This document shows, one piece after another, positions 29,879-56,258 of a stretch of DNA of 64,000 nucleotides. Source of the stretch: Opitutales bacterium (GTDB lineage: Bacteria > Verrucomicrobiota > Verrucomicrobiia > Opitutales > UBA9783); NCBI GenBank assembly GCA_024407725.1, contig JAKSVZ010000003.1:4732-68731 (forward strand). Direction: 5' to 3'. Position numbers and translations under genes: made by a program. The notes beneath the pieces were generated by a model that was not told where the DNA came from, did not search any database, and saw nothing but the letters and a program-made list of their open reading frames with translations. Each line of letters opens with the position of its first letter. Within the stretch, counting starts at the first letter, position 1.

Positions 29879-31048
29879 TTAAGCTTTAGGATTGGAATCC
29901 TTGAGCTCAGCATCGAGCGCCATTTTTTCTGTCGAGGTTAACAGAAGGGATTCGAGCCAATCCACAATGGTTTGCATGGAGCGGCTGGATAGGAGCTGTT
30001 TTAGGGTGTTGGCGTCTTCTAAAAAGCTTGTGCGGCTTTGCTCGGCTTTGGACAAAAACGATTCCATTTGATGAGCCACCGTAAGCGCTTGATTGGGGGT
30101 ATCCTGCAAAACTTCTGGATAGAGCGGCTTATTGAGGAGAATATTTGCCATGGATAAATAGCGTACCTTGGCGAGGCGTTTTCCGATAAAAAAGGTAATG
30201 GGATTGGCTCGGTAGGTAATTACTCCTGGAATACCCGCCAAGGCTACTTGTAGGGATGCCGTTCCTGAGGACATAATCGCGCTGCAAACACCGGTGTTGA
30301 ATTCTGCTAAGGGGCATAGGTCGATTCCAGCCAGTTCCTGAGTGCTCAAATACTGTTGAATTGCTTGATTGGGATAAGGAATGATGGCGCGCAGTTGGGG
30401 ATGGTGCTTCCTTAATTCACTCACAGCCGCTTTCAGAATGGGGGTTATCTGCTTAACGGCTCCTAAACGGCTTCCGGGGAGTAGCAACAGAGGGCCGTTT
30501 GGGTCGTATCTAAAGGGATTGGGTTGGTTCAACAGTGGATGTCCGACAAACCGTACGTCAAGCGAGGTATCGGCAAAACACGTTGGCTCAAAGGGGAAAA
30601 TGGTACCGAGGTGATTGAAATAACGTTCCATTTTAAAGCGCCGATGGGTATTCCAAGCCCAAATTTGAGGCGAAATATAGCCAAAAATGCGTGTGGTTCC
30701 ACCATGCGGGTAGGTTAACTTTTCTTGGCAAAGGAGCTTGGCTAATGTTAGATTAAAGCCAGGGAAATCGACCAAACAAATGATTTTCGGTTGATAAGCC
30801 CGCACCCATTCGACCGTCCAATGCATGAGGCGCATAAAGGATGAATAGCGGCGAATAACCTCGATTAGGCCGACAGCAGACCAATGGGTTAGGTCGAACA
30901 ATAGATGGGCGCCTGCTTGGCGTAACGCAGGGCCTCCAATTGCACAAATAGATAACTGGGGATGGCGCTTTTTGAGCATTTGAACCCATGAGGCGGCATG
31001 GTTATCGCCTGAATGTTCTCCTGCAATAATGAGTAGGTCGACTCCCAT
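29879..31048 (-). CDS. lpxB: Lipid-A-disaccharide synthase
   Basis: The N-terminal IIAGEHSGDNHAA motif and GT-B architecture. I chose the ATG at 31048; the track starts at the GTG at 31060. Confidence 0.9.
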   Translation of the reverse strand: MGVDLLIIAGEHSGDNHAASWVQMLKKRHPQLSICAIGGPALRQAGAHLLFDLTHWSAVGLIEVIRRYSSFMRLMHWTVEWVRAYQPKIICLVDFPGFNLTLAKLLCQEKLTYPHGGTTRIFGYISPQIWAWNTHRRFKMERYFNHLGTIFPFEPTCFADTSLDVRFVGHPLLNQPNPFRYDPNGPLLLLPGSRLGAVKQITPILKAAVSELRKHHPQLRAIIPYPNQAIQQYLSTQELAGIDLCPLAEFNTGVCSAIMSSGTASLQVALAGIPGVITYRANPITFFIGKRLAKVRYLSMANILLNKPLYPEVLQDTPNQALTVAHQMESFLSKAEQSRTSFLEDANTLKQLLSSRSMQTIVDWLESLLLTSTEKMALDAELKDSNPKA

Positions 31049-31052
31049 GGTA

Positions 31053-31985
31053 TTACGCACTTAAGGCGTTGTTGTGAATTTGATGCGTAATGCTTAACGC
31101 AACCTCCAATGCCGAACGCGCTAAGTACCCATCCACTGCCGGCTGATGAGCTTTTAGGATGCAATCGACAAACGAATTTAATTCAACCCGCAGGGGTTCC
31201 GCCTTATGAAAGGGAATTTCTTCGTTTAAAATTTGACCATTTTCCTTCCACATACGATGGCCGCGCTGTTCCATAAAATCCATCGATAGATAGCCTTCCG
31301 GTTGAAAAATGCGAATAGTACGTTCTTTCTTGGCGCTCACCCGAGAGGTATTGAAATTAGCAATGCATCCATTTTCAAAGCGAATGCGGGCGTTAGCGAT
31401 ATCTTCCACATTTTTCGACATCACATTAACCCCAATGGCCTCAATCGATTGAATGGGTGACTTGACCAGCTGGAGGACAATGCCTAAGTCGTGAATCATT
31501 AGATCTAAGGTTACGCCTACATCCGTATTGCGGTTGGGGAACGGTGCTAGGCGGTCAGCAACAATGTACTTTGGTTTTTGAATGTGAGTGGTTAGAAAAT
31601 TGTAAACAGGATTGTAATGCTCAACATGCCCTACCTGCAAATAGCACTGGTGTTTTTGAGCGGTTTGAATCATCTGTTCGGCTTCTTTAAGGTTCGTGCA
31701 CAGCGGTTTTTCGACCAACAGATGGCATCCCTGTTCTAACAGAGGAATGGCAACCGATGCGTGCGTAGAAGTTGGAGTAACCACGCTGAGTGCATCGCAC
31801 TGTTGAGCTAAGGCTTCTGCCGTTGGAAATACCGAACAATGATAGAGCTTGGCAATTTCTTCAGCGCGTTGAGGGTTGCTGTCGACAACGCCTACCAGCT
31901 GTACGGATTCTATTTCGGAATAAATGCGAGCGTGATGAGCTCCTAAATAGCCTACGCCTATGACGCCACAGTTAATTTTGTTCAT
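31053..31985 (-). CDS. Gfo/Idh/MocA family NAD(P)-dependent oxidoreductase
   Basis: An N-terminal Rossmann motif ([16 protein letters not shown]), an EKP motif (LLVEKPL) and a C-terminal alpha/beta domain. It lies between lolD and lpxB. The preferred start is MNKIN.. at 31985. Confidence 0.8.
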   Translation of the reverse strand: MNKINCGVIGVGYLGAHHARIYSEIESVQLVGVVDSNPQRAEEIAKLYHCSVFPTAEALAQQCDALSVVTPTSTHASVAIPLLEQGCHLLVEKPLCTNLKEAEQMIQTAQKHQCYLQVGHVEHYNPVYNFLTTHIQKPKYIVADRLAPFPNRNTDVGVTLDLMIHDLGIVLQLVKSPIQSIEAIGVNVMSKNVEDIANARIRFENGCIANFNTSRVSAKKERTIRIFQPEGYLSMDFMEQRGHRMWKENGQILNEEIPFHKAEPLRVELNSFVDCILKAHQPAVDGYLARSALEVALSITHQIHNNALSA

Positions 31986-32634
31986 ACAAGTGCCCATCTT
32001 TTAATTCAAATTGTCGGTTGGTTTGTTGTGCAAAGGTAGCATTATGAGTTACTAAGATTAAACCGGTTTTCACCGTAGCGCAAATCTGTAAAAGCAACGC
32101 CATTACCTGCGCGCCGGTAGCTTCGTCTAAACTTCCGGTAGGTTCGTCCGCCAACAACAGTTGGGGTTGCGTAATGAGTGCGCGCGCAATGGCAACCCGT
32201 TGCTGTTCCCCTCCCGATAAACGGCTAGGGGCAGCATTAAGTAGCGGTTGTAACCCTAGGGTTCCTAAAAGCGTTTCGGTATAGCTTGAGTCAGGTTTAG
32301 AGGCGCTTGGATTTAAACGCGTGGCGATAAAAATATTTTCAGCTACTGTTAATTCTTGAATAAGGTGATAATGCTGAAACACATAGCTAATGCTGGGAAT
32401 ATAACGATAGCGTCCTGCCACGATACGTTGCCCGTTGAATTCAATCGTACCGCTTTGGACAGGCTCCAGCCCCCCTAATGCAAACAACAGGGTGGATTTT
32501 CCGGAGCCCGATTGGCCGCAAATAGCAATACTTTCGTGAGCCGCTAACGAAAAACTCACTCCTTGCCACAGCATAGCGGGAGGCGTAAAGCTTTTCGACA
32601 GCTGATTTACCTGAAGGATGGGTTGAGCGACCAT
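31972..32634 (-). CDS. lolD: Lipoprotein-releasing system ATP-binding protein LolD-like
   Basis: Walker [11 protein letters not shown], signature [15 protein letters not shown], Walker [12 protein letters not shown]. It lies immediately downstream of a LolC/E-type permease gene. Confidence 0.8.
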
Positions 32635-33931: not shown

Positions 33932-35077
33932 TTATAAGCGTAAGGGCATGATCACGCCCAAAAAGTTATCGTTGGTTTTAATAACCCCAGGGCTTAAGGT
34001 GTCGCTAAATTCAAACACCACCTTGTCGTCTTGAATAGCCTTCAAAGGATCCATTAAAAACTTCGAATTAAACGAAATTGCCAATGGAGCATCTTTGTAA
34101 TCAATGGTCATGCTTTCGTGAGCTTCGCCCAAATCAGCACTTGAGGCCGATATTTCCAACGTATCTTCATTGAATTGCAGTTTGATGGTATTGCTTTCTA
34201 AGCTGGATACCAAAGCAGCGCGTTGAATACATTCCAATAATAAGGCGCGTTCTAATTGTACATGATGATTCGAGCTTTTCGGAATCACTTGTTGGTAATT
34301 GGGGAATTTGCCTTCGATGATTTTGGATACCAACAGGATGCTGTTGCCCAGTCCGTTTTCACGAGCGCTCTCTTCCAAAACCAATTCAAACGCTACTTGT
34401 TTGTCTTGATACGACACCTTGATGGATGACGGATGCTGAAGCAGGCGCTCCAATTCCGTTACGGTTTGGTAAGGTAAGATGAAACTTTTATCCGTCAACT
34501 CATTCGCTGCACTTGCTTCAATCGGGCATTGCATTAAGCTTAAACGGCGACTATCGGTCGCTACCAATTGCAACGCAGGACCTTCGGCTTCTTGAGAAAA
34601 GGTAAAGTAAACGCCGTTCAAAAAGTAACGATTTTGTTCAATGGATTGAGCATACGAAACGTGTCTCAATAAGGAACGCAATTTTTGTTGATGAATCGTG
34701 AACGTAGGTTGTTGGCCGCATTTAGGCAAATCGGGAAATGCTTTATCTTCCATTCCCATAATGCGGAAGCGGGAACGACCACAGGTGATTTTTGCCTGTT
34801 CGTTGGCACTATCCACTTCTACCATTCCCTCTGGCAAAGCTTTAACAATGGCTGCCAACTTACGGGCAGGTAACGTTAATGTGCCGGGGGTTTGTACCGT
34901 TGCGGTTACGGTACAGCGAATTCCAATATCTAGGTTTGTGGTGGTTAGCTCTAATGCATTATCTTGAGCTTTTATAAGCACATTGGACAAAACAGGAAGC
35001 GCTGCACGGGTTCCAACAATGTTCAGAACTTGCGTAAGTCCATTTACAAAAGCATTTTTTTCGATTTGGAATTTCAT
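33932..35077 (-). CDS. dnaN: DNA polymerase III beta sliding clamp
   Basis: 381 aa with three-domain clamp architecture: N-terminal MKFQIEKNAF...L..V, LP.RK, and C-terminal ..GVIMPLRL. I chose the ATG at 35077. No dnaA gene lies upstream. Confidence 0.9.
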   Translation of the reverse strand: MKFQIEKNAFVNGLTQVLNIVGTRAALPVLSNVLIKAQDNALELTTTNLDIGIRCTVTATVQTPGTLTLPARKLAAIVKALPEGMVEVDSANEQAKITCGRSRFRIMGMEDKAFPDLPKCGQQPTFTIHQQKLRSLLRHVSYAQSIEQNRYFLNGVYFTFSQEAEGPALQLVATDSRRLSLMQCPIEASAANELTDKSFILPYQTVTELERLLQHPSSIKVSYQDKQVAFELVLEESARENGLGNSILLVSKIIEGKFPNYQQVIPKSSNHHVQLERALLLECIQRAALVSSLESNTIKLQFNEDTLEISASSADLGEAHESMTIDYKDAPLAISFNSKFLMDPLKAIQDDKVVFEFSDTLSPGVIKTNDNFLGVIMPLRL

Positions 35078-35150
35078 CACTACAAAAATAACTTTTTACC
35101 CTCAAAATTGGCAAGATTTTTTGTTTTCAAAAAAAGACTGGTTTTTGTGG

Positions 35151-36182
35151 CTATTTGTGAGACAAAAAGCAGGTTTTTAGGCATTGATAAAAATACCTTA
35201 AGCCTTTGGTAGATGTATCGTTCAACGTAAAATCGTAATTAATGCAGGTGTTCATAACCGATGCCAATCCTGATTGTCGGCAAGCTTGACACGCCGGATG
35301 TTGGTCGCGCGCTTCGGTTAATGAACTAAGCGTATGGTCAAAGATAGACCCAACCGTTGTTCCGTTCATGCAACACAAGGAACATTTCCCCTGTACGTCC
35401 AAATACGTACGGTTGAGCATGGGGCAGCTTGTGCTGGGTTTGAAATAAGGGTCATAATAATCCATGAACAAATCATCCGCTGCTTGTTGGCGATAATCTG
35501 CTTCTAACGTTCCTTGGAAATAACGAGCTACCCTTGCGCCATCGTTGATGTAAGCATAGTAGGGATGAAACGCGATTCCAAGGGATTGCGCAAACGCTTG
35601 AGCAGGTGCGATTTCCTCTTGATTAAAACGGTACACATGAAAACGGATATCAAAAATGCCAAAAAACCCATGGCTTCGGAAATCCTGCACCAAGCGCTGA
35701 ATATTTGCCTTGATATGCTCGAAATCGAAGCGGTGGATCTTATCGTACGATGCTTGGCTAAACCCAGGCATGGAGATGTACACAACCGCGATATGGCTAG
35801 CGTCAAAGTTGTTAGGCAATTTAGGTAAGTAGTTAGCATTCGTGCTTAATCCCAACAAACACTGTTCTTGGGTGGCGATGCGAACGAGCGTTGCAAATTC
35901 AGGATGCAGGAGGGGTTCTCCCCAAGAATAAAGGTTGAGCAAGGTACCGGCGGTTAGAAAGCGCTGAGCTTTTAAATACTGGACGATGCGTGTAAATAAC
36001 TCAACCGATATAAACGGATTTTCTTTGCACCCTGAACCGTTGCGGTTATTGAATCCCGTTTGGCAATAAGCACACTGAGCGTTACAGATAGCACTGATTT
36101 CTAAAATAACGGAACGCCCCGTCTTGTGAGTTTGATAGGATAAAAAACGCTTAGCTGCTTTAAGGGCTTTTAAGCACTGCAT
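35151..36182 (-). CDS. Radical SAM enzyme with Cys-rich C-terminal (SPASM/twitch-like) domain, paralog 1 of 3
   Basis: 343 aa. CX3CX2C motif as ICNAQCAYC, then WGEPLLHP, STNAN, PGFSQASYDKIHRFDFEHIK. C-terminal Cys set: CPMLNRTYLDVQGKCSLCC ... CQAC ... LKTC. Confidence 0.8.
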   Translation of the reverse strand: MQCLKALKAAKRFLSYQTHKTGRSVILEISAICNAQCAYCQTGFNNRNGSGCKENPFISVELFTRIVQYLKAQRFLTAGTLLNLYSWGEPLLHPEFATLVRIATQEQCLLGLSTNANYLPKLPNNFDASHIAVVYISMPGFSQASYDKIHRFDFEHIKANIQRLVQDFRSHGFFGIFDIRFHVYRFNQEEIAPAQAFAQSLGIAFHPYYAYINDGARVARYFQGTLEADYRQQAADDLFMDYYDPYFKPSTSCPMLNRTYLDVQGKCSLCCMNGTTVGSIFDHTLSSLTEARDQHPACQACRQSGLASVMNTCINYDFTLNDTSTKGLRYFYQCLKTCFLSHK

Positions 36183-36209
36183 ACCGTTGGGTTTATGAAC
36201 ATTAAGGAT

Positions 36210-37268
36210 TTAAGGCTTTGCGTTTTCAGCTTTGGGCGATTGCAAACAGGTTTTGGCAAACGCTTTTAAATAGGTAAAGTTAATGCGTTTAAATTGTGCA
36301 AACCCTTGGAGTGGGAAATTTAAATCGTCCGCCAATTCCCAATTAGCCTTTCCTAACGCCATACATTCTTTACAAACCGGATGCTCTTGATGGATGCGAT
36401 CCCAGCGCTCGGGGGTCATTTCAAACACATTACCCAACAACGTGTCGTCATTACAACACATGCGGCAGTTGCCATCCACATCAACCGTTAGGTTTTTGGC
36501 AACGGGACAGAAGGTTGAAGGTTTTAAATTCTTCATATAGAACCCCATAAAAAGATCCTTAGAAACATTCATCAGATAATCATTGGGGAGCGTGCCTTTT
36601 AGATATTGCAAATGCCTTGGTCCATCGCAAATAAAGGCAAAATAAGGCCATAGATCAATGGCTAACGACCGCGCAAATGCTTTGGCAGCCTGAATCTCAT
36701 GCGTATTGAATTGGTATACGTGAAATGCAATAACAAAGCGCCCAAAACAGCCATGTTGGCGAAAGGTTTTTACAATTTGAGCAATGTTGCGCTTGATATG
36801 CTCGAAATCGAAGCGGTGGATTTTGTCGTATGATGCTTGGCTAAACCCAGGCATGGAAAAAATAGTCATGGCAATCGGGCTTGCATCAAAATCAGGTGAA
36901 ATTTTAGGCAAAACGTTAGCATTGGTGCTCAATTCAACGCAATAGCTAGCCTGTTGAGCGGCTTTAATAATGGCTGGAAAATCAGGATGCAATAACGGTT
37001 CGTGCCAATTGTGCAACGTTACTAAGGACCGCCCTTTTACAAAGGAACTTTTTTTGGCATACGCTAGAATCTGCTTAAAACGTTCAACCTCCATGAATGA
37101 GGTACCCGGATGGGTTATATGATTACGGTTTTCCCAGCCCGTTTGGCAATAGTAACATTGGGCGTTACAAACATTACTGATTTCAACCAAGATTGATTTA
37201 CGATGCCGATTTGCTTTGTAGGCAGCAAAACGGGTAAGGGCTTTCAGCGCTCGTAGAAATTGGGTCAT
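36210..37268 (-). CDS. Radical SAM enzyme with Cys-rich C-terminal (SPASM/twitch-like) domain, paralog 2 of 3
   Basis: 352 aa. VCNAQCYYC, WHEPLLHP, STNAN, and an identical PGFSQASYDKIHRFDFEHIK block. C-terminal CPVAKNLTVDVDGNCRMCC ... CKEC ... AKTC. Confidence 0.8.
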   Translation of the reverse strand: MTQFLRALKALTRFAAYKANRHRKSILVEISNVCNAQCYYCQTGWENRNHITHPGTSFMEVERFKQILAYAKKSSFVKGRSLVTLHNWHEPLLHPDFPAIIKAAQQASYCVELSTNANVLPKISPDFDASPIAMTIFSMPGFSQASYDKIHRFDFEHIKRNIAQIVKTFRQHGCFGRFVIAFHVYQFNTHEIQAAKAFARSLAIDLWPYFAFICDGPRHLQYLKGTLPNDYLMNVSKDLFMGFYMKNLKPSTFCPVAKNLTVDVDGNCRMCCNDDTLLGNVFEMTPERWDRIHQEHPVCKECMALGKANWELADDLNFPLQGFAQFKRINFTYLKAFAKTCLQSPKAENAKP

Positions 37269-37272
37269 AACG

Positions 37273-38307
37273 CTAACGTAAACATTGTTTTAATACTTCC
37301 AAAAACCATTGCCGTCGCCAATTGTAATGAGGAGGATAAAAATCACAGTAGGCATTATCGCGATTAGGCAACCCTAGCGCTAGGCATTCCTTACAAAAAT
37401 CGTAGCCTTCGTGCCATTTGCGTAATTTTTCTGGTGTTACTTCGAATACGGAGCCTAGGGAATCTGTTGTATTACAACAGGTAATAACGTTACCTTGGCT
37501 ATCGATAGCCAATCCGTTGTTATACCATGGACAGGTTGATTGTGGACCTTTGAGATTGAGCGTTAATCCCATGAATAAATCACGCGAGATGTTGGTTAAA
37601 AAATCCATGGGTAGCTCTTGTTTCAAGTATTTTGCAACATCCTTGAAGCTACATAAAGTGGCAAAATACGGTTGGCAATCGATATGAAGGGAGCGGGCAA
37701 ATTCGTAGGCTGCTGGCAGCTCATGAATATTCGATTGATAGACATGAAAAGCAATTTTGAAATGCCCAATGCATCCATGTTTGCGGAAAGTATGTACGAG
37801 GGTTGTAATATTGTGCTTAATGCGTTCAAAGTCAAATTTATGGATTTTGTCGTACGATGCTTGGCTGAATCCAGGCAAGGAAAACCAAACAATATAAATG
37901 CGGCTTGCATCAAAATCATTGGGGATTTTGGGGAGCACGTTTGCGTTGGTAGAGATATCTAGAGGACAATGAAATTGATTGGTAATGCGGATGATGGATG
38001 CAAATTCCGGATGTAACAGCGGTTCATGCCATACATAAGGTAGTAAACAGGTATGGGGTTGTAGCCACTGGGTGTCTTTCAAATGTTGAAGGATTTTTTG
38101 AAACAAATCAGTCGACATGAAGCTAGGAGCGCCTGATTGTCGGCAGCTAGGAGCACCCTTTCGATTGGCTAATCCAATGGGGCAATAATAGCACTGGGCG
38201 TTACAGACATTGCTAATATCGATTAAAATATCTTTGTTGGGAATCCGATGCTTTCGGTAATCAGCAAAGCGTCGAACGGATTGTAAGGTGCGTAGAAATT
38301 GAGTCAT
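37273..38307 (-). CDS. Radical SAM enzyme with Cys-rich C-terminal (SPASM/twitch-like) domain, paralog 3 of 3
   Basis: 344 aa. VCNAQCYYC, WHEPLLHP, STNAN, PGFSQASYDKIHKFDFERIK. C-terminal CPWYNNGLAIDSQGNVITCC ... CKEC ... LKQC. Only a 4-nt gap separates it from paralog 2. Confidence 0.8.
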   Translation of the reverse strand: MTQFLRTLQSVRRFADYRKHRIPNKDILIDISNVCNAQCYYCPIGLANRKGAPSCRQSGAPSFMSTDLFQKILQHLKDTQWLQPHTCLLPYVWHEPLLHPEFASIIRITNQFHCPLDISTNANVLPKIPNDFDASRIYIVWFSLPGFSQASYDKIHKFDFERIKHNITTLVHTFRKHGCIGHFKIAFHVYQSNIHELPAAYEFARSLHIDCQPYFATLCSFKDVAKYLKQELPMDFLTNISRDLFMGLTLNLKGPQSTCPWYNNGLAIDSQGNVITCCNTTDSLGSVFEVTPEKLRKWHEGYDFCKECLALGLPNRDNAYCDFYPPHYNWRRQWFLEVLKQCLR

Positions 38308-38403
38308 TTTGAATGAATTAACGGAAAATTATCAAAGATTAGGGTAAAGCGCGAGTTTTTTATCCTGAAGAAGTTATTGGAAGCATTTGCATGTTGAGGG
38401 GAT

Positions 38404-38694
38404 ATGGGATACAATAACTTTGTGGATCAGAATGCTATTGTTGATTTGTCGTCGAAAGCGATGAGCATTGTATTGTTGCTTTCTTTACCCTCTATTTTGT
38501 TGGCAACGTTTGTTGGGTTGGGTGTTAGTTTGCTCCAAGCGTTAACGCAGGTACAGGAACAAACGCTCAGTTTTGCGGTTCGTCTTATTTGCATTGCTTG
38601 CGTATTAGTATTGAGCGCCCATTGGATGGGAATTGAGATGGTTCGTTATTTGGAATCCATCTTTATGCTTATTAAGCAACCGTTTGGGCGATGA
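38404..38694 (+). CDS. sctS: Type III secretion export-apparatus protein SctS (YscS/FliQ family)
   Basis: 96 aa with two TM helices and the signature SLLQALTQVQEQTLSF. Confidence 0.8.
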   Translation: MGYNNFVDQNAIVDLSSKAMSIVLLLSLPSILLATFVGLGVSLLQALTQVQEQTLSFAVRLICIACVLVLSAHWMGIEMVRYLESIFMLIKQPFGR

Positions 38695-39488
38695 ACTTCG
38701 ATGCCCTAAAGCCATTGTTGGATTGGCTATTGATTTTAGGGATTAGTGGTAGCCGCATGTTCGGCTTTTGTTCGTTATCGGTGTTTTTCGCTTCGCAATA
38801 TTTATCAGGGACTGCACGGCGTGTGGTGACAGTAGCGTTTGCTATATTACTAATGCCTGCTGTGTATGTACAGGGATTAGCGGTGTTAAACGAAAGCCGT
38901 TGGTTGTTTATTTTAATTCTCTTCAAAGAAGCTTTGTTGGGAATGATTTTGGGGTGGTTGACCAATTTTTGGTTTTATGCGGCTCAAAGCGTCGGATTTA
39001 TTTTGGATACGCAACGCGGAGCATCCATGGCTAGTTTGTTTGACCCCTTATCCAATTCCCAAACCAGCCCCTTGGGTGACTTTTTGATCAAATTTACTAT
39101 GGTATTGGCGGTATGCTGTGGTGGGTTGTTTCTTATTTTGAAAGGCATTTATGTCACGTATGAATTATGCCCTATATTTACGTTCCCAACTGATTTAGGA
39201 AAGGCATGGATTCACTTCTTTAATCATGGAATGGGAACGGAATTGTTTAACCAAATTGCCTTATTGGGAGGTCCCGTTTTGTTCATTTTGTTCTTGGCGG
39301 AATTTGGATTGGGCTTGGTAACGCGCTTTGCCCCTCAGTTAAACGTGTTCTTTTTATCCATGCCGATTAAAAGTGAACTATCCATGTTCTTCTTTATCCT
39401 GTATTTATATTATTTAGCTCAATATTTTGCGGGGCGTTTTGATTGTCGTGCGGTCGTTTTACAATTTTTAAGGTTGTTGCATGAGTGA
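38691..39488 (+). CDS. sctT: Type III secretion export-apparatus protein SctT (YscT/FliR family)
   Basis: 265 aa and polytopic. It shows a family-typical pattern (R..G......P.F, ..E...G...G....) and position between sctS and sctU. There is an ATGA overlap with sctS. Confidence 0.8.
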   Translation: MNFDALKPLLDWLLILGISGSRMFGFCSLSVFFASQYLSGTARRVVTVAFAILLMPAVYVQGLAVLNESRWLFILILFKEALLGMILGWLTNFWFYAAQSVGFILDTQRGASMASLFDPLSNSQTSPLGDFLIKFTMVLAVCCGGLFLILKGIYVTYELCPIFTFPTDLGKAWIHFFNHGMGTELFNQIALLGGPVLFILFLAEFGLGLVTRFAPQLNVFFLSMPIKSELSMFFFILYLYYLAQYFAGRFDCRAVVLQFLRLLHE

Positions 39489-40554
39489 AAAAACAGAACA
39501 GCCAACCGCTAAAAAAATACGGGATGCCCGCAAAAAGGGGCAGGTTGCTAACAGTAAGGATGTCACCTCTACTGCGTTACTGATCATTATTTTTGCGTAT
39601 TTTGGGATACGTCGAGAAGCTGTTTTGCAAACGATAGGAGAATTAATAGAGCTTCCAGCTACCTTGTACAACGAACCGTTTATAGGAGCGTGTCAGCGAA
39701 TTATAGCTGATGGGCTTTCGGTGTTTGTTCAGGTGGTTTTGCCCCTCTTATTGTTGGTGGTCATTACCGGTTTGGCAGCTCATATGCTCCAGTTCGGATT
39801 GCTTTTGGCTTTTGAGTCGATTAAGCCGGATTTAAACAAACTCAATCCCATTTCTAAATTGAAGCAGATGTTTTCCATGAAAAACTTGGTGGAATTCCTA
39901 AAATCTGCGTTCAAAATTATATTTTTGGGGGTTTTGCTGTATTTTGTTATCCGCAATGCGCTCGATCCGCTATTAAAAACCCCGTTTATGAACTTGGAGG
40001 ATTTGATGGATGTTATGCCCAGCATCATGAAAACCTTCGTTTGTAATGTGATTTTTGCCTATGTCGTGGTGGCGTTTATCGATTTTGTTTTTCAGCGCAG
40101 AAATCACCTGAAGCAGCTGATGATGACCAAGGATGAGGTTAAGCGTGAATTTAAAGAACAAGAAGGGGACCCTACGATTAAGGGTAAGCGTAAGCAGATG
40201 CATCGGGAATTATTGCAAGGGGGGCCGGCGGTACGTACAAAGCGTGCTTCGGCTGTCATTGTGAATCCAACGCACTATGCGGTTGCTATTTACTATAACC
40301 GTCTGGTGACCAAATTGCCCTTAGTTTTGGCCAAAGGAATCGATTTTCAGGCGCAATTGATGAAGCAAATGGCTCGACAGTACGACATACCGATTTTGGA
40401 GGATGTTCCGTTGGCTCATGCGTTGTATGATTTGGTTGATGAGGGGGACTATATTCCGCATGAATTAATTGAGCCGATTGCGCACGTCATTCGTTGGTTG
40501 CAAGAGAACAAAAATAAGGTGGAAAAAGCACCGTATGTCCCCATGAAACGCTAA
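39481..40554 (+). CDS. sctU: Type III secretion substrate-specificity switch protein SctU (YscU/FlhB family)
   Basis: N-terminus SEKTEQPTAKKIRDARKKGQVANSKD, four TM helices, and the autocleavage motif NPTH at 40264..40275 (VIVNPTHYAVAI). Confidence 0.85.
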   Translation: MSEKTEQPTAKKIRDARKKGQVANSKDVTSTALLIIIFAYFGIRREAVLQTIGELIELPATLYNEPFIGACQRIIADGLSVFVQVVLPLLLLVVITGLAAHMLQFGLLLAFESIKPDLNKLNPISKLKQMFSMKNLVEFLKSAFKIIFLGVLLYFVIRNALDPLLKTPFMNLEDLMDVMPSIMKTFVCNVIFAYVVVAFIDFVFQRRNHLKQLMMTKDEVKREFKEQEGDPTIKGKRKQMHRELLQGGPAVRTKRASAVIVNPTHYAVAIYYNRLVTKLPLVLAKGIDFQAQLMKQMARQYDIPILEDVPLAHALYDLVDEGDYIPHELIEPIAHVIRWLQENKNKVEKAPYVPMKR

Positions 40555-40703: not shown

Positions 40704-43094
40704 ATGCCTGAACTTTCTATTCGAAAACGTAATGGGTCTATCGTTCCGTTTGACTTGGAACGCATTTTTAGTGCGATCCATAGAGCTTTTTTAGCGGTAA
40801 GTCCCCAATGTGATGTCTCCTTGGTACAACGCTTAAGTGAGAAGGTGTTGTCTGAGCTAGAGCGTTATCCTGAGCATGCAATCCCATCAGTTGAAGAGGT
40901 TCAGGATTTGATAGAGCATTGCTTGATGCAAGAGCACTTTGAAAAAGTTGCTAAAGCGTTCATCTTGTATCGTGATCAACACCGCCAAATCCGCGAAGGT
41001 CAAGCGTTGGTGTTAGATATCGGGAAAACGATGGAAGATTACCTGCATCAAAGCGATTGGCGCGTGCATGAAAACAGCAGCATGCATTATTCGGTCGGTG
41101 GGCTTATTTTGCACAACGCAGGAGCGATTACTGCCAATTATTGGTTGAGCCGTATTTACGATGAAAAAATTGCTCAGGCTCATAAAAATGGGGATTTCCA
41201 TTTGCATGATTTATCCATGTTTTCTGGGTATTGTGCCGGTTGGAGCTTGCGTCAATTGTTAGAATTGGGCGTCAGTGGAGTTGAGGGTAAGGTTGGATCG
41301 AAGCCAGCCAAGCACTTTTCAACGGCTATTTGGCATATCATTAACTTTTTAGGGACGATGCAAAACGAATGGGCAGGTGCTCAGGCGCTTTCTAGTTTTG
41401 ATACCTATTTAGCTCCTTTTGTTAAACAGGATCACCTAACGTTTGAACAAGTGAAGCAGTGTATTCAAAGCTTTGTTTTTAGCATGAATACATCCTCGCG
41501 TTGGGGATCACAGCCTCCTTTTTCAAACATTACGTTAGATTGGGTATGTCCAAAAGATTTAGCGGATAAAAAGGTTATTGTTGGCGGTAAGGAATGCGAT
41601 TTCTGTTACAAGGATTGTCAGAAAGAGATTGATATGATCAACCGTGCCTTTTTAGAGGTGATGCTTGAAGGGGATGCGAATGGTCGTGGGTTTGCTTATC
41701 CTATCCCAACTTACAATATTACAAAGGATTTTAATTGGGAGGGTGAAAATGCAGACTTGTTGTTTACAATGGCTGCTAAATACGGAACCCCTTACTTCCA
41801 GAATTTTATTAATTCTGACCTAAATCCATCGGATGTACGGAGTATGTGCTGCCGTTTAAGTTTGGACAAACGAGAATTAAGGCGCCGTGGCGGTGGATTG
41901 TTCGGAGCCGATGAATTTACAGGATCCATTGGAGTGGTAACCATCAACATGCCGCGTTTGGGCTATTTAAGCACTTCTGAAGCTGAATTTTTCCAGCGCT
42001 TGGATACCTTGATGGATTTGGCAAAGGATTCATTGGAGTGTAAGCGTAAGGTGATTCAATCGTGGTTGGATCAAGGATTGTTCCCCTATACCAAGCGTTA
42101 TTTACATACATTTAATAACCATTTCTCCACGATTGGATTGGTGGGTATGCATGAATGTTGCTTGAATTTCTTGCATCAATCGATTGCAAGTGAGGCAGGA
42201 CATGCGTTTGTCCAACGGGTATTGTTGCATATGCGCGATCGGTTACGGGATTATCAGGAAAAAACTGGTAATTTGTACAATTTGGAAGCAACGCCCGCTG
42301 AAGGAACTTCGTATCGTTTAGCTAAAATCGATAAAAAGATGTTCCCAGAGATGATTCAATCAGGGAGCGAGGATCCTTATTATACCAATTCGTCTAACCT
42401 GCCTGTGGATTATACATCGAATGTATTTGAGGCGTTAGAGCATCAGGAGGAGATTCAAACAAAATATACAGGAGGTACCGTATTCCATGTGTTTTTGGGA
42501 GAAGCGTTACCGGATGCTCTGTCATGCCGTACGTTGGTGCGTAAGATTGTGAGCAATTATCGGGTGCCTTATGTGTCGATTTCACCGACGTTTTCGGTGT
42601 GCGGAACCCATGGCCGTTTTGAAGGTCAGGTGGAACATTGCCCGAAATGTGGAGCAGAAATGGAAATCTACAGCCGTATTACCGGTTATTACCGAGCGGT
42701 TAAGTTTTGGAACAAAGGTAAGAAGGAAGAATTTAAGCAGCGGTTAACGTATGACGCAGTGCATTCCCATTTGCCGTTTGGTAAGAACGATGCAACCGCA
42801 GGTATGGGTGAAGCGGAAGCTGCTGGTTGTGAAACGAAACAAGAGGAACCCATGCCGGCTGTTCAACAAGCGTTGTTTTTCCATAGCGATTCCTGTGTTA
42901 AATGCCGTGCCTTAAAGCCATTTTTAGCTGAAAAACATTTTAACGGAACGTATGTAAACACATCCGAAACTTCAGGATTGGAGCTTGCCAAACGTTATCA
43001 TATTCACAACTTGCCAGCCTTGGTGGTTCCGAACCGACCTGAAGTGGTATACGATTCAGAAGAAATTAAACGGTACGTAAGCGCTGGGTCTTAA
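40704..43094 (+). CDS. nrdD: Anaerobic ribonucleoside-triphosphate reductase (class III) with C-terminal thioredoxin-fold extension
   Basis: 796 aa with an N-terminal ATP-cone (IRKRNGSIVPFDLERI), the class III core (..CCRL.., NLEATPAEG) and the glycyl-radical motif SRITGYYRAV after CPKCG. About 112 extra residues follow, including a CVKC-containing Trx-like domain. Confidence 0.95.
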   Translation: MPELSIRKRNGSIVPFDLERIFSAIHRAFLAVSPQCDVSLVQRLSEKVLSELERYPEHAIPSVEEVQDLIEHCLMQEHFEKVAKAFILYRDQHRQIREGQALVLDIGKTMEDYLHQSDWRVHENSSMHYSVGGLILHNAGAITANYWLSRIYDEKIAQAHKNGDFHLHDLSMFSGYCAGWSLRQLLELGVSGVEGKVGSKPAKHFSTAIWHIINFLGTMQNEWAGAQALSSFDTYLAPFVKQDHLTFEQVKQCIQSFVFSMNTSSRWGSQPPFSNITLDWVCPKDLADKKVIVGGKECDFCYKDCQKEIDMINRAFLEVMLEGDANGRGFAYPIPTYNITKDFNWEGENADLLFTMAAKYGTPYFQNFINSDLNPSDVRSMCCRLSLDKRELRRRGGGLFGADEFTGSIGVVTINMPRLGYLSTSEAEFFQRLDTLMDLAKDSLECKRKVIQSWLDQGLFPYTKRYLHTFNNHFSTIGLVGMHECCLNFLHQSIASEAGHAFVQRVLLHMRDRLRDYQEKTGNLYNLEATPAEGTSYRLAKIDKKMFPEMIQSGSEDPYYTNSSNLPVDYTSNVFEALEHQEEIQTKYTGGTVFHVFLGEALPDALSCRTLVRKIVSNYRVPYVSISPTFSVCGTHGRFEGQVEHCPKCGAEMEIYSRITGYYRAVKFWNKGKKEEFKQRLTYDAVHSHLPFGKNDATAGMGEAEAAGCETKQEEPMPAVQQALFFHSDSCVKCRALKPFLAEKHFNGTYVNTSETSGLELAKRYHIHNLPALVVPNRPEVVYDSEEIKRYVSAGS

Positions 43095-43103
43095 AGGATA
43101 ACT

Positions 43104-43790
43104 ATGCCTAAGCGGTATGGTTTTTTAGCCCAATCGTTAAGCGATTATCCGGGTGAAGTATGTAGCGTAGTATTTATACCAGGGTGTAATTTTCATTGTC
43201 CCTATTGCCATAACAAAACCCTTGCGGACGATGTTCAGCGTGATGGGTTGGAATTACCTGCTATTGAAGCTTATCTGCAGAAAGCGCGTAAACTCATCAG
43301 CGGGGTGTGTATCAGCGGGGGAGAATCAACCTTGTATCCATCCGATTTAATGCTTTTGATCGAACGCTTTAAGCGCTTAGGGTTAAAAGTAAAGGTCGAT
43401 ACCAACGGAAGCCATCCGGAGGTGGTGCGGTTGATCAGCCCGTTAGTTGATTATATTGCAATGGATCTCAAAACGTCTCTAGAGCGTTATCCCCAGCTTG
43501 TTGAACCAGCTGAACAAAGCAAGTTAGTAGCTAATATAAAAGCATCGATTCAAGCACTGTTGCAGCGTGCGCCTAGTACCTATGAATTCCGTACTACGTT
43601 AGCGCGTGATTGGGTTGATGAAGCTGCCTTGCGGAACTTAGGCTCCCTAATTCATCCTTCAGCCTATTGGTATCTACAGCGTTGTTATAGTGCGCAGAAC
43701 AAACCTGAAACACCCCAAGATGGGGAAACGATTGAACGTTATTTGGCAATTGCTAAAAATTATTGTAATAACGTGTTTTTTCGCCCCTAA
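43104..43790 (+). CDS. nrdG: Anaerobic ribonucleotide reductase activating protein (radical SAM)
   Basis: CNFHCPYCHN cluster motif and ISGGESTL. It lies directly downstream of nrdD. Confidence 0.85.
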   Translation: MPKRYGFLAQSLSDYPGEVCSVVFIPGCNFHCPYCHNKTLADDVQRDGLELPAIEAYLQKARKLISGVCISGGESTLYPSDLMLLIERFKRLGLKVKVDTNGSHPEVVRLISPLVDYIAMDLKTSLERYPQLVEPAEQSKLVANIKASIQALLQRAPSTYEFRTTLARDWVDEAALRNLGSLIHPSAYWYLQRCYSAQNKPETPQDGETIERYLAIAKNYCNNVFFRP

Positions 43791-45301: not shown

Positions 45302-46408
45302 TTAGCGTAATAAAATTTCTACAGCCAAGCTATCAGCTAAGAGCATTCCGTGTTGAGTGCAGCGTAAGATAGAATGGTTCAAGGTCGTAAGTCCTTGAGC
45401 ACAAAAATGCTGCCAAAGCGATTGATAACGCTCCAAATTGACCGATGGGAATTGTTTTTGTAATTCGCGCAGGTTGATTCCTTCGCATAAACGTAAGCCG
45501 AAGATCAGGTGATCCTTGCAAAGCTCGTCTGGGGTAAGCGATGGAGTGGAGCTATGAGGACCTGAATTATAAGGCAAATGGGTGGGGTTTTGGAAGCGTT
45601 GATAATTCCATTGAGAAGCGGCGCTGGGGCCCCAACCCAACCATTCTTGCATGAGCCAAGTGTTTTTGTTGTGGCGGCATTCAAAGTTGGGTTTGGCAAA
45701 ATTAGACACTTCGTATTGCCGATATCCGTGTTCGTTTAAAAAGTCCCAAGTAAACAGGTAAAAGCTTGCTTCTTTATCGACATCGACCGTTTGGTGATGC
45801 TGAGGGGTAAAGGGGCCTGAGGTAGTTTCGTAGGTCAAACAGTAAGTGGATAAGTGCTCAGGGTTTAAGCTAATGGCTGTTTCTAGGTCTTTACGCCAAA
45901 GGGTTAAGTCAGAAAAATCCGGTGGAAAAATGAGATCCAAATTGATGTTGTTGAATCCCGCGGATCGTAAGGCATCGTAAGCCTTAAAAACGTCTGCTGG
46001 GGTTTGTCGGCGTCCCAGTTGATGTAAAATGGTAGGGTTGAAGCTTTGAACACCCATGGATAGGCGTGTTACGGGCAACGAACGCAAGGCTTGTAATTTA
46101 GCTTTATCGATGGCAGTGGGGGATACTTCCACGGACCATTCTTTTAGGTTTGCGGATGTGGGGCACAAATTTCCTAAGGCGATCAATTCATCAGGGGTTA
46201 AGCAGCTTGGATTGCCTCCTCCCCAAAAGATGGTTTCAAACGGGCGTTGTTCCCAAACAAACTGCCAATAATCCCGTTCCTGTTGGAGGTTCTGAAAAAA
46301 CTGTTGGATAGCAGACTGAGAGGGGGATTGTTTATAGAAATGGCAGTAATCGCACCGATTGGTGCAAAACGGAACATGGATATAAAGGCCTAATGCGGGG
46401 AGTTTCAA
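45302..46408 (-). CDS. hemW: Radical SAM heme chaperone HemW / oxygen-independent coproporphyrinogen oxidase-like protein
   Basis: LYIHVPFCTNRCDYCHFY, GGGNPS, and a HemN_C-like C-terminus. 368 aa with a TTG start. Confidence 0.85.
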   Translation of the reverse strand: MKLPALGLYIHVPFCTNRCDYCHFYKQSPSQSAIQQFFQNLQQERDYWQFVWEQRPFETIFWGGGNPSCLTPDELIALGNLCPTSANLKEWSVEVSPTAIDKAKLQALRSLPVTRLSMGVQSFNPTILHQLGRRQTPADVFKAYDALRSAGFNNINLDLIFPPDFSDLTLWRKDLETAISLNPEHLSTYCLTYETTSGPFTPQHHQTVDVDKEASFYLFTWDFLNEHGYRQYEVSNFAKPNFECRHNKNTWLMQEWLGWGPSAASQWNYQRFQNPTHLPYNSGPHSSTPSLTPDELCKDHLIFGLRLCEGINLRELQKQFPSVNLERYQSLWQHFCAQGLTTLNHSILRCTQHGMLLADSLAVEILLR

Positions 46409-47484: not shown

Positions 47485-48918
47485 TTAACCGCGTTGATTG
47501 AAAGCCCACTGATAGACTGATTCGTATTGTGTGCTAGAGTGTGCCCAAGAAAAATCGGCTTCCATAGCTGTTTTTTGCATCTTTTGAAACAAATGAGGCT
47601 TTTCGGTATAGATGCGGTAAGCCCAATGAACGGTATTGTAGATAGCGTCGTTGTGGAGATCGGAAAATACAAAACCGTAGCCTGTTTCGTCTGATTCGTT
47701 TAACGACTGAACGGTATCGGCTAAGCCGCCGGTTGCGCGTACAATGGGTAAAGTTCCGTAGCGCATAGCATAAAGCTGAGCTAAGCCGCAGGGTTCGTAA
47801 CGACTGGGGAGGATGAACAAATCGCATCCAGCTTGTAATCGATGGGCGAGTCCTGAGTCGTATTGGGTAATCATTCGGACTTGATTGGAGAATGGCTGTT
47901 CTAACGAGCGAAATTGGTTTTCTAGGTTCATATCACCCGTTCCCAAGATAACGACCTGCAGTTGAGTGTTGTTTAAGAGGTAGGGAAGTACATTAGCAAA
48001 GACATCCAATCCCTTTTGCCAACAGATGCGGCTGACCACTCCTAATAGGGGGGCTTGTGTGTGTGGCAAATGAAATTGGTCGCGAATGGACTTTTTACAT
48101 TCCTCTTTGGGACCTAAATTGTTTGAGGTGAAGTGGCTGGGAATCAGCGGGTCGGTTTCTGGATTCCACACATCGGTATCGATACCATTTAAAATTCCGA
48201 TGAGATCCCCTGCTTTAAAGCGAAGTACGGGGTCTAATCCGCAGCCAAATTCGGTAGTTTGAATTTCTTGTGCATAGCGAGGGCTAACGGTGGTTATTTT
48301 GGTGGAATGATAAAGGGCGCCTTTTAGGAAGTTTACCTGTCCTAATGCTTCTAGGCTGGTGGAATGAAATTCGGAAAAAGGGATGCCTGCGAAGGATAAA
48401 ATGGAGGGGGAAAATATGCCCTGATACTGAAGGTTATGGATGGTGAAAACGGTTGCGGCGGCGCTGATGGGATGGCAAGAACGTAAGGTGTTGCAGTAGA
48501 CGGGGATCAGCCCTGTGGCCCAATCATGGCAATGTATGACTTCTGGAGCCCATTGCAACGTACTACAGCTATCGAGTACCGCTCGGCAGAAGAAGGCAAA
48601 ACGTTCGCCGTTATAAGTCCCATCGACATAAATCGCGGCATCTTTAAAGTAATTAGGAGCGTCGATAAAGTAGAAGGTAATTCCATTTTGGACGACTTCA
48701 TATACTTGGCATTTTTCAATCTTTTGCCCCATGTACACTGAAATATCTCTATGGCAAAACCAATCGTTTTGTGGGTGGATAAATCCATAGAGGGGCAAGA
48801 ACAGCCGTACGTCATGATGGCGATTAGCTAAGGCTTTTGCGAGGCCGCTTACCATGTGACCGAGACCTCCTGTTTCCGCAAAGGGAGCGCATTCGGGGCT
48901 AGCCATTAAAATTCTCAT
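47485..48918 (-). CDS. glgA: Glycogen synthase (ADP-glucose type, GT5)
   Basis: MRILMASPECAPFAETGGLGHMVSGLAKALA (K-x-G-G-L type motif), and C-terminal PSRYEPCGL.Q...MRYGT.P.VR.TGGL.DTV. Confidence 0.9.
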   Translation of the reverse strand: MRILMASPECAPFAETGGLGHMVSGLAKALANRHHDVRLFLPLYGFIHPQNDWFCHRDISVYMGQKIEKCQVYEVVQNGITFYFIDAPNYFKDAAIYVDGTYNGERFAFFCRAVLDSCSTLQWAPEVIHCHDWATGLIPVYCNTLRSCHPISAAATVFTIHNLQYQGIFSPSILSFAGIPFSEFHSTSLEALGQVNFLKGALYHSTKITTVSPRYAQEIQTTEFGCGLDPVLRFKAGDLIGILNGIDTDVWNPETDPLIPSHFTSNNLGPKEECKKSIRDQFHLPHTQAPLLGVVSRICWQKGLDVFANVLPYLLNNTQLQVVILGTGDMNLENQFRSLEQPFSNQVRMITQYDSGLAHRLQAGCDLFILPSRYEPCGLAQLYAMRYGTLPIVRATGGLADTVQSLNESDETGYGFVFSDLHNDAIYNTVHWAYRIYTEKPHLFQKMQKTAMEADFSWAHSSTQYESVYQWAFNQRG

Positions 48919-56163: not shown

Positions 56164-56258
56164 AACTAATCTTTTCTTTTTATATTTTAAAGGTAGCGTA
56201 AAATTTTTAAGCAAACCGTCAATTTATTTTTTGATAAATAGGATGGAAATTGAGCCTG

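Follow-up and report, generated by a model that had tools for sequence, protein, structure and literature searches.

A tandem triplet of radical SAM genes beside dnaN in an Opitutales bacterium belongs to an uncharacterised twitch-type family linked to surface-glycan assembly

Radical S-adenosylmethionine (SAM) enzymes of the SPASM/twitch class have been mined almost entirely as maturases of peptides made on ribosomes and modified after translation (RiPPs), and the characterised members that act on sugars come from antibiotic pathways. A 64,000-nucleotide stretch of the genome of an Opitutales bacterium (GenBank assembly GCA_024407725.1, contig JAKSVZ010000003.1, positions 4,732 to 68,731), here called the window, carries three consecutive radical SAM (rSAM) genes of this kind next to dnaN. 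What do the three enzymes act on, and why are there three of them? The original prediction, made from the sequence of the window, found no recognisable partner gene and implied a peptide or protein substrate. Neither view was supported by an examination of homologs in other genomes, where glycan partners are evident: nucleotide-sugar and glycan-assembly genes, together with fusions to glycosyltransferases. We propose, with moderate confidence, that the triplet belongs to an uncharacterised radical SAM family that carries out radical oxidation or epimerisation of sugar residues of surface glycans. The three genes and the two cysteine-rich regions of copy 2 that are discussed below are:

37273..38307, minus strand: copy 1, radical SAM/twitch enzyme, WHEPLLHP variant; open reading frame (ORF) of 344 aa
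36210..37268, minus strand: copy 2, radical SAM/twitch enzyme, WHEPLLHP variant; ORF of 352 aa, the copy that was modelled
35151..36182, minus strand: copy 3, radical SAM/twitch enzyme with the canonical WGEPLLHP; ORF of 343 aa
37146..37169, minus strand: copy 2 codons for C34-N-A-Q-C38-Y-Y-C41, the radical SAM [4Fe-4S]/SAM-binding motif, with equivalents in copies 1 and 3
36363..36509, minus strand: copy 2 codons for C254...C271-C272...C299-x-x-C302, the twitch-type auxiliary-cluster region and the extra cysteine C272

ORF calls bear out the three paralogous same-strand genes first described, with gaps of 4 nt between copies 1 and 2 and 27 nt between copies 2 and 3; copy 1 is the first gene past the divergent sctS promoter region. 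The other two copies share 50% and 43% identity with copy 1 and the mean column identity is 67%, a likeness that, judged by alignment, is far beyond chance. The nearest relatives of the window are metagenome-assembled genomes (MAGs) of rumen Opitutales, and copy 2 is 97% identical at the protein level to its ortholog in 'Verrucomicrobia bacterium UBA3869'. Measured against the orthologous triplet of the UBA3869 MAG (L008; nucleotide identity 90-93%, pS 0.27-0.35), the ratio of nonsynonymous to synonymous differences per site (pN/pS) was 0.10 for copy 1, 0.04 for copy 2 and 0.06 for copy 3. On the strength of these comparisons the three genes are real, functional and under strong purifying selection.

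All motifs quoted in the original prediction are present in the three copies, namely C-N-A-Q-C-x-Y-C, W(H/G)EPLLHP, STNAN, PGFSQASYDKIH(R/K)FDFE and C-P...CC...C-x-x-C, including the His for Gly of copies 1 and 2. The CX3CX2C motif and a partial TIM-barrel fold with a GGE-like motif place them in the radical SAM superfamily. A profile search of 5.8 billion proteins returned 394 relatives, none of them named beyond 'radical SAM protein', and an exhaustive search of 1.84 billion representatives of 50%-identity clusters returned 639 at E <= 1e-30; the family is distributed over bacteria and archaea. Conservation was counted over 123 family sequences, with the residue numbering of copy 2. The signature of the family reads CNAxCxxC, WGEPxLxP, STN, SMPGFSQxSYDxIHxFxF and HVYxFNxxE. 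C34, C38 and C41 of the CX3CX2C motif are invariant (123/123), followed by N35 (122/123) and A36 (113/123), and the Glu of W(G/H)EP is present in every sequence (123/123). Q144, Y147, D148, K149, H151, H183, Y185, N188 and E191 make up an invariant polar and aromatic pocket. In the C-terminal part C254, C271, C272, C299 and C302 are kept in 117-119 of the 123 sequences, with C254-X16-C271 (Gly at -5 from C271) followed by C299-X2-C302. These five cysteines of the set originally described thus stand as a conserved feature, whereas its last member, the terminal LK-x-C cysteine, is present in 14 of the 123 and is no family feature. All of the family-invariant residues and the five C-terminal cysteines are kept in the three window copies.

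Could the triplet nevertheless belong to a family that is already curated? In line with the first scan-based proposal, which could not place the family, no Pfam or NCBIfam family claims the three copies. The radical SAM core model PF04055 scored 22, 33.9 and 35.8 bits for copies 1, 2 and 3 (gathering cut-off 29.5), and the SPASM model PF13186 matched copy 2 alone, at a sub-threshold 12.5 bits (cut-off 21.5). The best NCBIfam model, TIGR04317 (W_rSAM_matur), scored 55.3, 62.7 and 56.1 bits against a cut-off of 380 and covered the N-terminal core, about positions 2-177 of the 349 in the model. MoaA models scored 20-41 bits (equivalog cut-offs 231-325), the BlsE model 20-29 bits (cut-off 400) and the viperin model 20-35 bits (cut-off 180). 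BlsE was also the sole match in a sequence search of the PDB (E 0.003). The family's own profile scores copy 1 at 373 bits. We therefore rejected an assignment to any curated family, the matches of Pfam and NCBIfam being generic core matches and all specific models being far below their cut-offs. Family members from cultivated organisms likewise have no curated assignment, and searches of Pfam, NCBIfam, the PDB and the literature found no entry that defines the family and no characterised member.

These scores bear directly on the idea that the three enzymes are a maturase of tungsten-cofactor oxidoreductases, MoaA or an anaerobic sulfatase-maturating enzyme (anSME). TIGR04317 is the best NCBIfam match, MoaA models do match and anSME is among the top structural matches. 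However, no anSME model matched at E <= 1 in NCBIfam, and the SPASM Pfam model matches 5 of 117 family members: a full SPASM domain of the PF13186/TIGR04085 type has seven cysteines, including CX2CX5CX3C and a final Cys, and the family has five conserved C-terminal cysteines. Genes for sulfatases, aldehyde oxidoreductases and molybdopterin synthesis are not among the recurrent neighbours of the family. Membership of these known families is effectively refuted by the scores, and we consider this explanation extremely improbable.

The genomic setting of the homologs gave the main clue to function. Species-representative genomes were scanned, and the genes around the family members at 78 loci were clustered; 64 of these loci are from outside the Opitutales. 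The numbers of the 78 loci in which each neighbour was found are:

DegT aminotransferase: 18
NAD epimerase/dehydratase: 18
TylC3-type C-methyltransferase: 11
RmlC: 11
Class I methyltransferases: 10
CmcI O-methyltransferase: 10
Glycosyltransferase family 2 (GT2): 9
B12-radical SAM protein: 9
WbsX: 7
NeuB: 6
Nucleotidyltransferase: 6

At least 40 of the 64 non-Opitutales loci include one or more of the recurrent glycan families and 29, a lower bound, include two or more. A Lachnospiraceae locus encodes GT2, GT4, GT10 and GT11 enzymes, NeuB, a Maf-like protein and several methyltransferases, and a Desulfobacter locus encodes GT1, GT2, DegT and NeuB. An O-antigen-type locus combines Wzm/Wzt(Wzt_C) with a carbamoyltransferase, FdtA and DegT. 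The locus of Clostridium botulinum ATCC 25763 includes NeuB, a nucleotidyltransferase, two TylC3-type C-methyltransferases, RmlC, an epimerase, a CmcI O-methyltransferase and GT1. In Clostridium tertium the family gene is located between two flagellin genes, within a flagellin glycosylation island of flagellin, GT2/TPR, GT2+methyltransferase, rSAM, ATP-grasp, pyruvyl transferase, DegT and flagellin genes. Cell-surface glycan assembly, in O-antigen, capsule and flagellin glycosylation loci, is in this sense the consistent genomic home of the family, including flagellin glycosylation islands of cultivable Clostridium species. Cultivable carriers of a family gene include C. tertium (L079), C. botulinum ATCC 25763 (L022) and Aeromonas enteropelogenes CECT 4487 (L074).

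The strongest evidence for the glycan link, as read from domain matches, comes from fusions within single polypeptides. The rSAM domain is fused to WbsX in P0145 and P0245 (E 1e-97 to 1e-107 against a Pfam-annotated WbsX cluster), to GT2 in P0165, P0217 and P0229, and to GT-A-like and methyltransferase-like segments in P0175, and coiled coils are joined to it in P0229, P0146 and P0143. The giant fusions P0229, P0146, P0143, P0175, P0145 and P0245, all metagenomic, are 520-1275 aa long. They recall the coiled-coil chain-length regulators and terminators of ABC-transporter-dependent O-antigen synthesis. The WbdD-type methyltransferase/kinase with its coiled coil may be a comparable case: family members too are fused to glycosyltransferases, methyltransferase-like segments and coiled coils, and have Wzm/Wzt(Wzt_C) neighbours. 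The family differs from WbdD-type O-antigen tailoring enzymes in that its catalytic module is a radical SAM domain, and we know of no characterised radical SAM enzyme in O-antigen termination.

The same loci speak to the substrate that the class itself would suggest. Most characterised SPASM/twitch enzymes act on peptides, the structural matches described below include SuiB, CteB and EpeE, and peptide-maturase models of NCBIfam give weak matches (E 1e-3 to 1e-4), so that the triplet might consist of RiPP or protein maturases (sactisynthases, peptide epimerases or cross-linkers) with precursors elsewhere in the genome. Yet the maturase models reach no more than 13-30 bits, where their cut-offs are 300-720, and only 25-33 residues, a single helix, precede the CX3CX2C motif in the three copies, with no N-terminal domain of the RiPP recognition element type. 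No ORF above 12 aa, and no usable small ORF, was found in the 4-, 27-, 70- and 96-nt gaps of the triplet region, in line with the early remark that no precursor, protease or exporter is encoded nearby. The small co-occurring ORF or precursor that was to be sought near homologs did not turn up either: none of the 78 loci has a precursor peptide, protease or exporter beside the family gene, and glycan genes are found instead. The fusion partners, moreover, are glycosyltransferases and not peptide-processing domains. A role in peptide or protein maturation appears to us very unlikely.

Two further features were noted among the glycan-linked homologs. An accessory Rossmann-like module of about 100 aa, C2185-like_N (PF22674), is N-terminal in P0038 and C-terminal in P0030. 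In the Lachnospiraceae locus L003 (5881-13491) it is also encoded on its own, or joined to Methyltransf_11/DUF268 and Methyltransf_21 enzymes; one copy matches PglD_N, and the module had no sequence match in the PDB. It may be a substrate-binding or docking module shared by glycan-tailoring enzymes. In addition, six tandem rSAM/SPASM genes and a B12-rSAM gene lie upstream of the family member in the Desulfobacter MAG OY762069.1 (L004, 1-7218), and in Methanospirillum purgamenti (L049, 9959-19852) four related rSAM genes are interspersed among others. Runs of several such genes seem to be a repeated feature of surface-glycan clusters.

What chemistry would be expected from the protein itself? 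The AlphaFold2 (AF2) model of copy 2, built from an alignment of 117 sequences, had a predicted local distance difference test (pLDDT) score of 90.7 and a predicted template modelling (pTM) score of 0.90, with alternating beta/alpha elements. It matched 84 radical SAM chains of the PDB at E <= 1e-3. In the Foldseek comparison BlsE, anSME, SuiB, CteB, DesII, viperin, BtrN, MoaA and EpeE were all found at probability 1.0, with template modelling (TM) scores of about 0.5 and identities of 12-16%, none of them a close solved relative. The modelled fold is in the SPASM/twitch neighbourhood.

A twitch domain is a shortened form of the SPASM domain in which a CX9-15GX4C beta-hairpin and a CX2C motif provide one fully Cys-ligated [4Fe-4S] cluster; the twitch sugar dehydrogenase BtrN has such an auxiliary cluster with four Cys ligands, and the auxiliary cluster of MoaA has three Cys ligands and an open site (PMC9012708). 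The family has the twitch pattern at the sequence level, C254-X16-C271 and C299-X2-C302, which predicts a cluster. In the PDB profile alignment C254, C271, C299 and C302 were in register with C169, C187, C232 and C235 of BtrN, its auxiliary-cluster ligands: C254...G-x4-C271...C299-x2-C302 in the family corresponds to C169...G-x4-C187...C232-x2-C235 in BtrN, and C272 was aligned to a Phe. The four-Cys site of the C-terminal pattern fits BtrN rather than the three-Cys cluster of MoaA. These alignments, and the conservation of the C-terminal cysteines among homologs, support the partial SPASM/twitch domain that was originally suggested, with one predicted BtrN-like auxiliary [4Fe-4S] cluster.

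BtrN (2-deoxy-scyllo-inosamine dehydrogenase of butirosin synthesis; PDB 4M7S/4M7T) is a useful point of comparison. Like the family, it has a radical SAM core followed by a short twitch domain with the auxiliary Cys pattern CX(9-15)GX4C...CX2C in register (structural match at probability 1.0, TM 0.41/0.55, about 12% identity), and its carbohydrate-type substrate recalls the setting of the family genes, which often have DegT-family aminotransferases beside them. Unlike BtrN, the family is about 80 residues longer and has its own invariant block SMPGFSQxSYDxIHxFxF/HVYxFNxxE, has a further conserved Cys adjoining the second auxiliary ligand, and occurs in loci for surface glycans instead of aminoglycoside clusters. 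BlsE (cytosylglucuronate decarboxylase of blasticidin S synthesis; PDB 7VOB), a radical SAM enzyme that acts on a sugar-nucleoside, is the best match both by sequence and by structure (E 1.3e-9, TMq 0.53), but it is 15% identical and there is no sign of a uronic-acid substrate in the family. DesII (8HZY, E 3e-8) and viperin (6Q2P, TMt 0.62), also matched by Foldseek, act on nucleotide-linked substrates of deoxysugar pathways; neither is known to have an auxiliary cluster. The match to anSME (4K37; TM 0.53, 14% identity) is a generic structural similarity. Conceptually the closest chemistry is that of the aminoglycoside sugar epimerases NeoN and HygY, in which H abstraction is followed by return of H from a Cys thiol; the comparison is one of mechanism, both enzymes being absent from the PDB match lists. 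Loss of a single Cys reportedly turns the twitch epimerase HygY into a dehydrogenase, according to the title of a paper on it that PMC10991966 cites.

Putting these elements together, the enzymes would hold a SAM-cleaving [4Fe-4S] cluster on CNAQCxYC and a BtrN-like auxiliary [4Fe-4S] cluster on C254/C271/C299/C302, with C272 alongside. The 5'-deoxyadenosyl radical would take an H atom from a C-H bond of the sugar. The sugar radical might then lose one electron through the auxiliary cluster, giving a keto-sugar (dehydrogenation of the BtrN type), or the spare Cys thiol might quench it from the opposite face (epimerisation of the NeoN/HygY type). The substrate would be a carbohydrate of a cell-surface glycan, either a nucleoside diphosphate (NDP)-sugar or, with greater probability, a sugar unit of a lipid- or protein-linked glycan that is still being extended. 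We lean towards a glycan-attached substrate over a free NDP-sugar, since the joining of the enzyme to glycosyltransferases and coiled coils in single chains, and its Wzm/Wzt neighbours, would point to action on a growing or completed glycan.

Several observations weigh against this proposal and were considered in our estimate of it. No member of the family is characterised in the literature searched, and function is carried over from context at 30-35% identity, the identity between the glycan-locus members and the window copies. The register with the twitch region of BtrN comes from a weak second-domain alignment with an E value of 7.7 on its own. Of the 64 non-Opitutales loci, 24 have none of the recurrent glycan clusters; many of the 24 are short contigs, and the annotation covered the recurrent clusters and not singleton genes. 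A subgroup in Lachnospiraceae and Oscillospiraceae (L054, L062, L066, L070, L073 and L077, including Pseudoflavonifractor gallinarum) is found beside sugar ABC importer genes (SBP_bac_1 and two BPD_transp_1 permeases); it keeps the core active-site residues and has lost all four auxiliary-cluster Cys. The family is thus not uniformly biosynthetic and the auxiliary cluster is not needed in every member, and the subgroup suggests a catabolic carbohydrate branch that works without the cluster. Finally, the Opitutales paralogs, those of the window included, adjoin housekeeping genes (dnaN, topA, argS, mutY-like, truA, ychF) and not glycan genes.

This last point called for a closer look at the Opitutales lineage. 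The Opitutales members form a monophyletic clade of 33 sequences, with several paralog lineages at different conserved positions:

Position A: sctU-sctT-sctS <-> rSAM -> dnaN, single copy, in L002, L013, L014 and L017
Position B: adjoining an HhH-GPD glycosylase, a PilT-like ATPase and YchF, in L010, L011, L012, L016 and L018
Position C: adjoining TopA, in L001 and, in UBA3869, L015
Position D: adjoining ArgRS, in L009 of UBA3869
Position E: adjoining TruA, in L019

UBA3869 has at least five scattered paralogs of the family. Because the family has expanded in the lineage to this extent, the local context is uninformative on function, and the housekeeping neighbours of the window triplet carry no functional signal. 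The paralog at position D has a dTDP-sugar operon 1.5-7 kb upstream on the opposite strand (L009, 2522-7468, UBA3869 contig DGGR01000027.1). Its genes (an NTP_transferase nucleotidyltransferase, an epimerase/dehydratase, DegT, RmlC and a TylC3-type C-methyltransferase) make, by their annotation, a nucleotide-activated amino, C-methyl deoxysugar, and we count the operon in favour of the glycan proposal.

The question of why there are three copies was approached with an approximate neighbour-joining (NJ) tree of the paralogs, in which the window copies are not mutual sisters. Copy 3 falls in with the type A genes (L002, L013, L014 and L017), copy 1 lies with P0008 (61% identity) and type C, and copy 2 with P0004 (64% identity) as well as types D and B. 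In another organism P0008 takes up the corresponding sctT-sctS <-> rSAM position, and 6 nt downstream of P0004 starts an ORF with MTQIKRFLSTCKRFLEYEKH, the N-terminal signature of the family. The lineage-specific phylogeny proposed at the outset therefore gave a divided answer: the family has indeed expanded in the lineage, but a recent tandem triplication was rejected, each copy being closer to a relative in another genome or locus than to the other two. Since each copy has its own ortholog the triplet is old, and the tandem array, on this evidence, is conserved beyond the window species. The orthologs and the purifying selection also make the three distinct functions first suggested for the copies plausible. 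As each copy represents an old paralog lineage, each would probably act on a different sugar or position.

The features that set this clade apart raise another explanation, that its enzymes took on a new function on a nucleotide, a nucleic acid (modification of DNA, tRNA or rRNA) or a small metabolite. The neighbours of the clade are mostly nucleic-acid genes (dnaN, topA, an HhH-GPD glycosylase, a PD-(D/E)XK nuclease, a BFN nuclease, argS, truA and ksgA), and the sctS <-> rSAM -> dnaN synteny is kept in at least five species. The basic, amphipathic N-terminal helix of clade members (net charge +5 to +7, hydrophobic moment 0.37-0.48) does not occur in the rest of the family and could aid binding of such a substrate. 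The GGE-like motif is likewise altered in this clade alone. Its Gly, present in 99 of the 123 family members, gives way to H, N, Y or F within the clade, among some 20 sequences that are the closest homologs, so the His that had been noted as unusual in copies 1 and 2 is a trait of the clade and not special to these genes. On the other hand, housekeeping neighbours are expected by chance in compact host-associated genomes. The clade also keeps Q144, Y147, D148, H151, H183, Y185, N188, E191 and the five Cys, and this favours an unchanged chemistry and class of substrate; the nearest solved structures include the sugar-modifying BlsE, DesII and BtrN. A basic amphipathic helix fits membrane association for work on lipid-linked glycans equally well, and would suit the glycan-directed function that we propose. 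A change to a new function in the Opitutales is in our estimate unlikely.

The window triplet is then no cryptic RiPP cluster; we see in it three old paralogs of a glycan-linked family in a compact, probably host-dependent genome. The family is new in that we found no curated model, structure or publication for it, and of a known kind, that of twitch radical SAM enzymes acting on carbohydrates. If the proposal is true, radical C-H functionalisation would join the known routes by which anaerobes diversify O-antigens, capsules and flagellin glycans, with a bearing on serotyping, phage receptors and immune recognition, and there would be tractable model organisms in which the chemistry could be tested. 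For enzyme discovery the family as a whole makes a good, tractable target; the mechanistic clue from the window itself is limited to the paralog expansion. A bolder version, which we regard as doubtful, is that the family forms a radical SAM class not recognised before, whose members alter sugars already incorporated in a surface glycan (O-antigen, capsule, flagellin or S-layer). Their oxidation or epimerisation would need no O2 and would take place at unactivated C-H bonds. The five or more paralogs of a rumen Opitutales symbiont that bears a type III secretion system (T3SS) and an ATP/ADP translocase would in that case reflect a surface glycan that radical chemistry has extensively remodelled for life with a host.

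The immediate surroundings of the triplet are as follows:

33932..35080, minus strand: dnaN, downstream of copy 3
35081..35150, minus strand: 70-nt gap between copy 3 and dnaN, with no terminator-like site
38308..38403, no strand assigned: intergenic region of 96 nt that separates copy 1 from the divergent sctS and is presumed to serve as promoter region of the rSAM-dnaN gene string

Beyond the triplet, the side of dnaN further has lolC/D-like genes, a gene for a UDP-GlcNAc 3-dehydrogenase-like oxidoreductase and lpxB, and the opposite side has sctS/T/U and nrdD/G. The original prediction was right about dnaN as the same-strand neighbour; its distance of 73 nt becomes 70 nt, or 73 if the stop codon is counted. 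A scan of the 70-nt gap found no terminator-like site, and transcription may read through from copy 3 into dnaN. Weak promoter-like matches were seen at 38335-38306 (minus strand) and 38386-38415 (plus strand), at a frequency no higher than chance; promoter and terminator scans were at or below chance level and speak neither for nor against co-transcription with dnaN. The remark that the triplet occupies the place of dnaA was not upheld: related MAGs keep this synteny, the window yielded no DnaA motif, and the GC skew stays positive from end to end (0.005-0.23), dipping at minus-strand genes without a change of sign.

The T3SS export genes reported upstream were confirmed as injectisome-type SctS/T/U, which score above the NCBIfam cut-offs and below those of the flagellar models. 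A link of the window to flagellin glycosylation, considered in view of the Bac_export genes and the C. tertium island, was rejected on these scores. A link to lipopolysaccharide or lipid A through lpxB and the GnnA-like dehydrogenase was rejected as an argument as well, that part of the synteny being common to the window and L002 only and absent from L013, L014 and L017. The dehydrogenase itself, a GFO/IDH/MocA oxidoreductase (31053-31997, minus strand) beside lpxB (29879-31060, minus strand), has UDP-N-acetylglucosamine 3-dehydrogenase as its best model (226 bits against a cut-off of 450) and hints at lipid A of the GlcN3N type in the organism.

Other genes of the window give an impression of its host. 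A TLC-family ATP/ADP translocase is encoded at 54631-56214 on the minus strand (PF03219, 615.6 bits), injectisome SctS/T/U and the anaerobic NrdD/NrdG are encoded in the plus-strand regions 38404-40554 and 40704-43790, and the syntenic MAG locus L002 has two DUF2608 genes. Taken together, the translocase, SctS/T/U, NrdD/NrdG and the DUF2608 genes suggest that the lineage (UBA3869, RGIG5041, RGIG10339, Tb.RUG.38) is a host-dependent and possibly intracellular energy parasite, perhaps of rumen protists. The window further includes a gene for a HemN-like radical SAM protein (45302-46408), glycogen synthase (47485-48918), a protein with four LysM domains (11551-12627), and FtsW and MurG (12634-14789).

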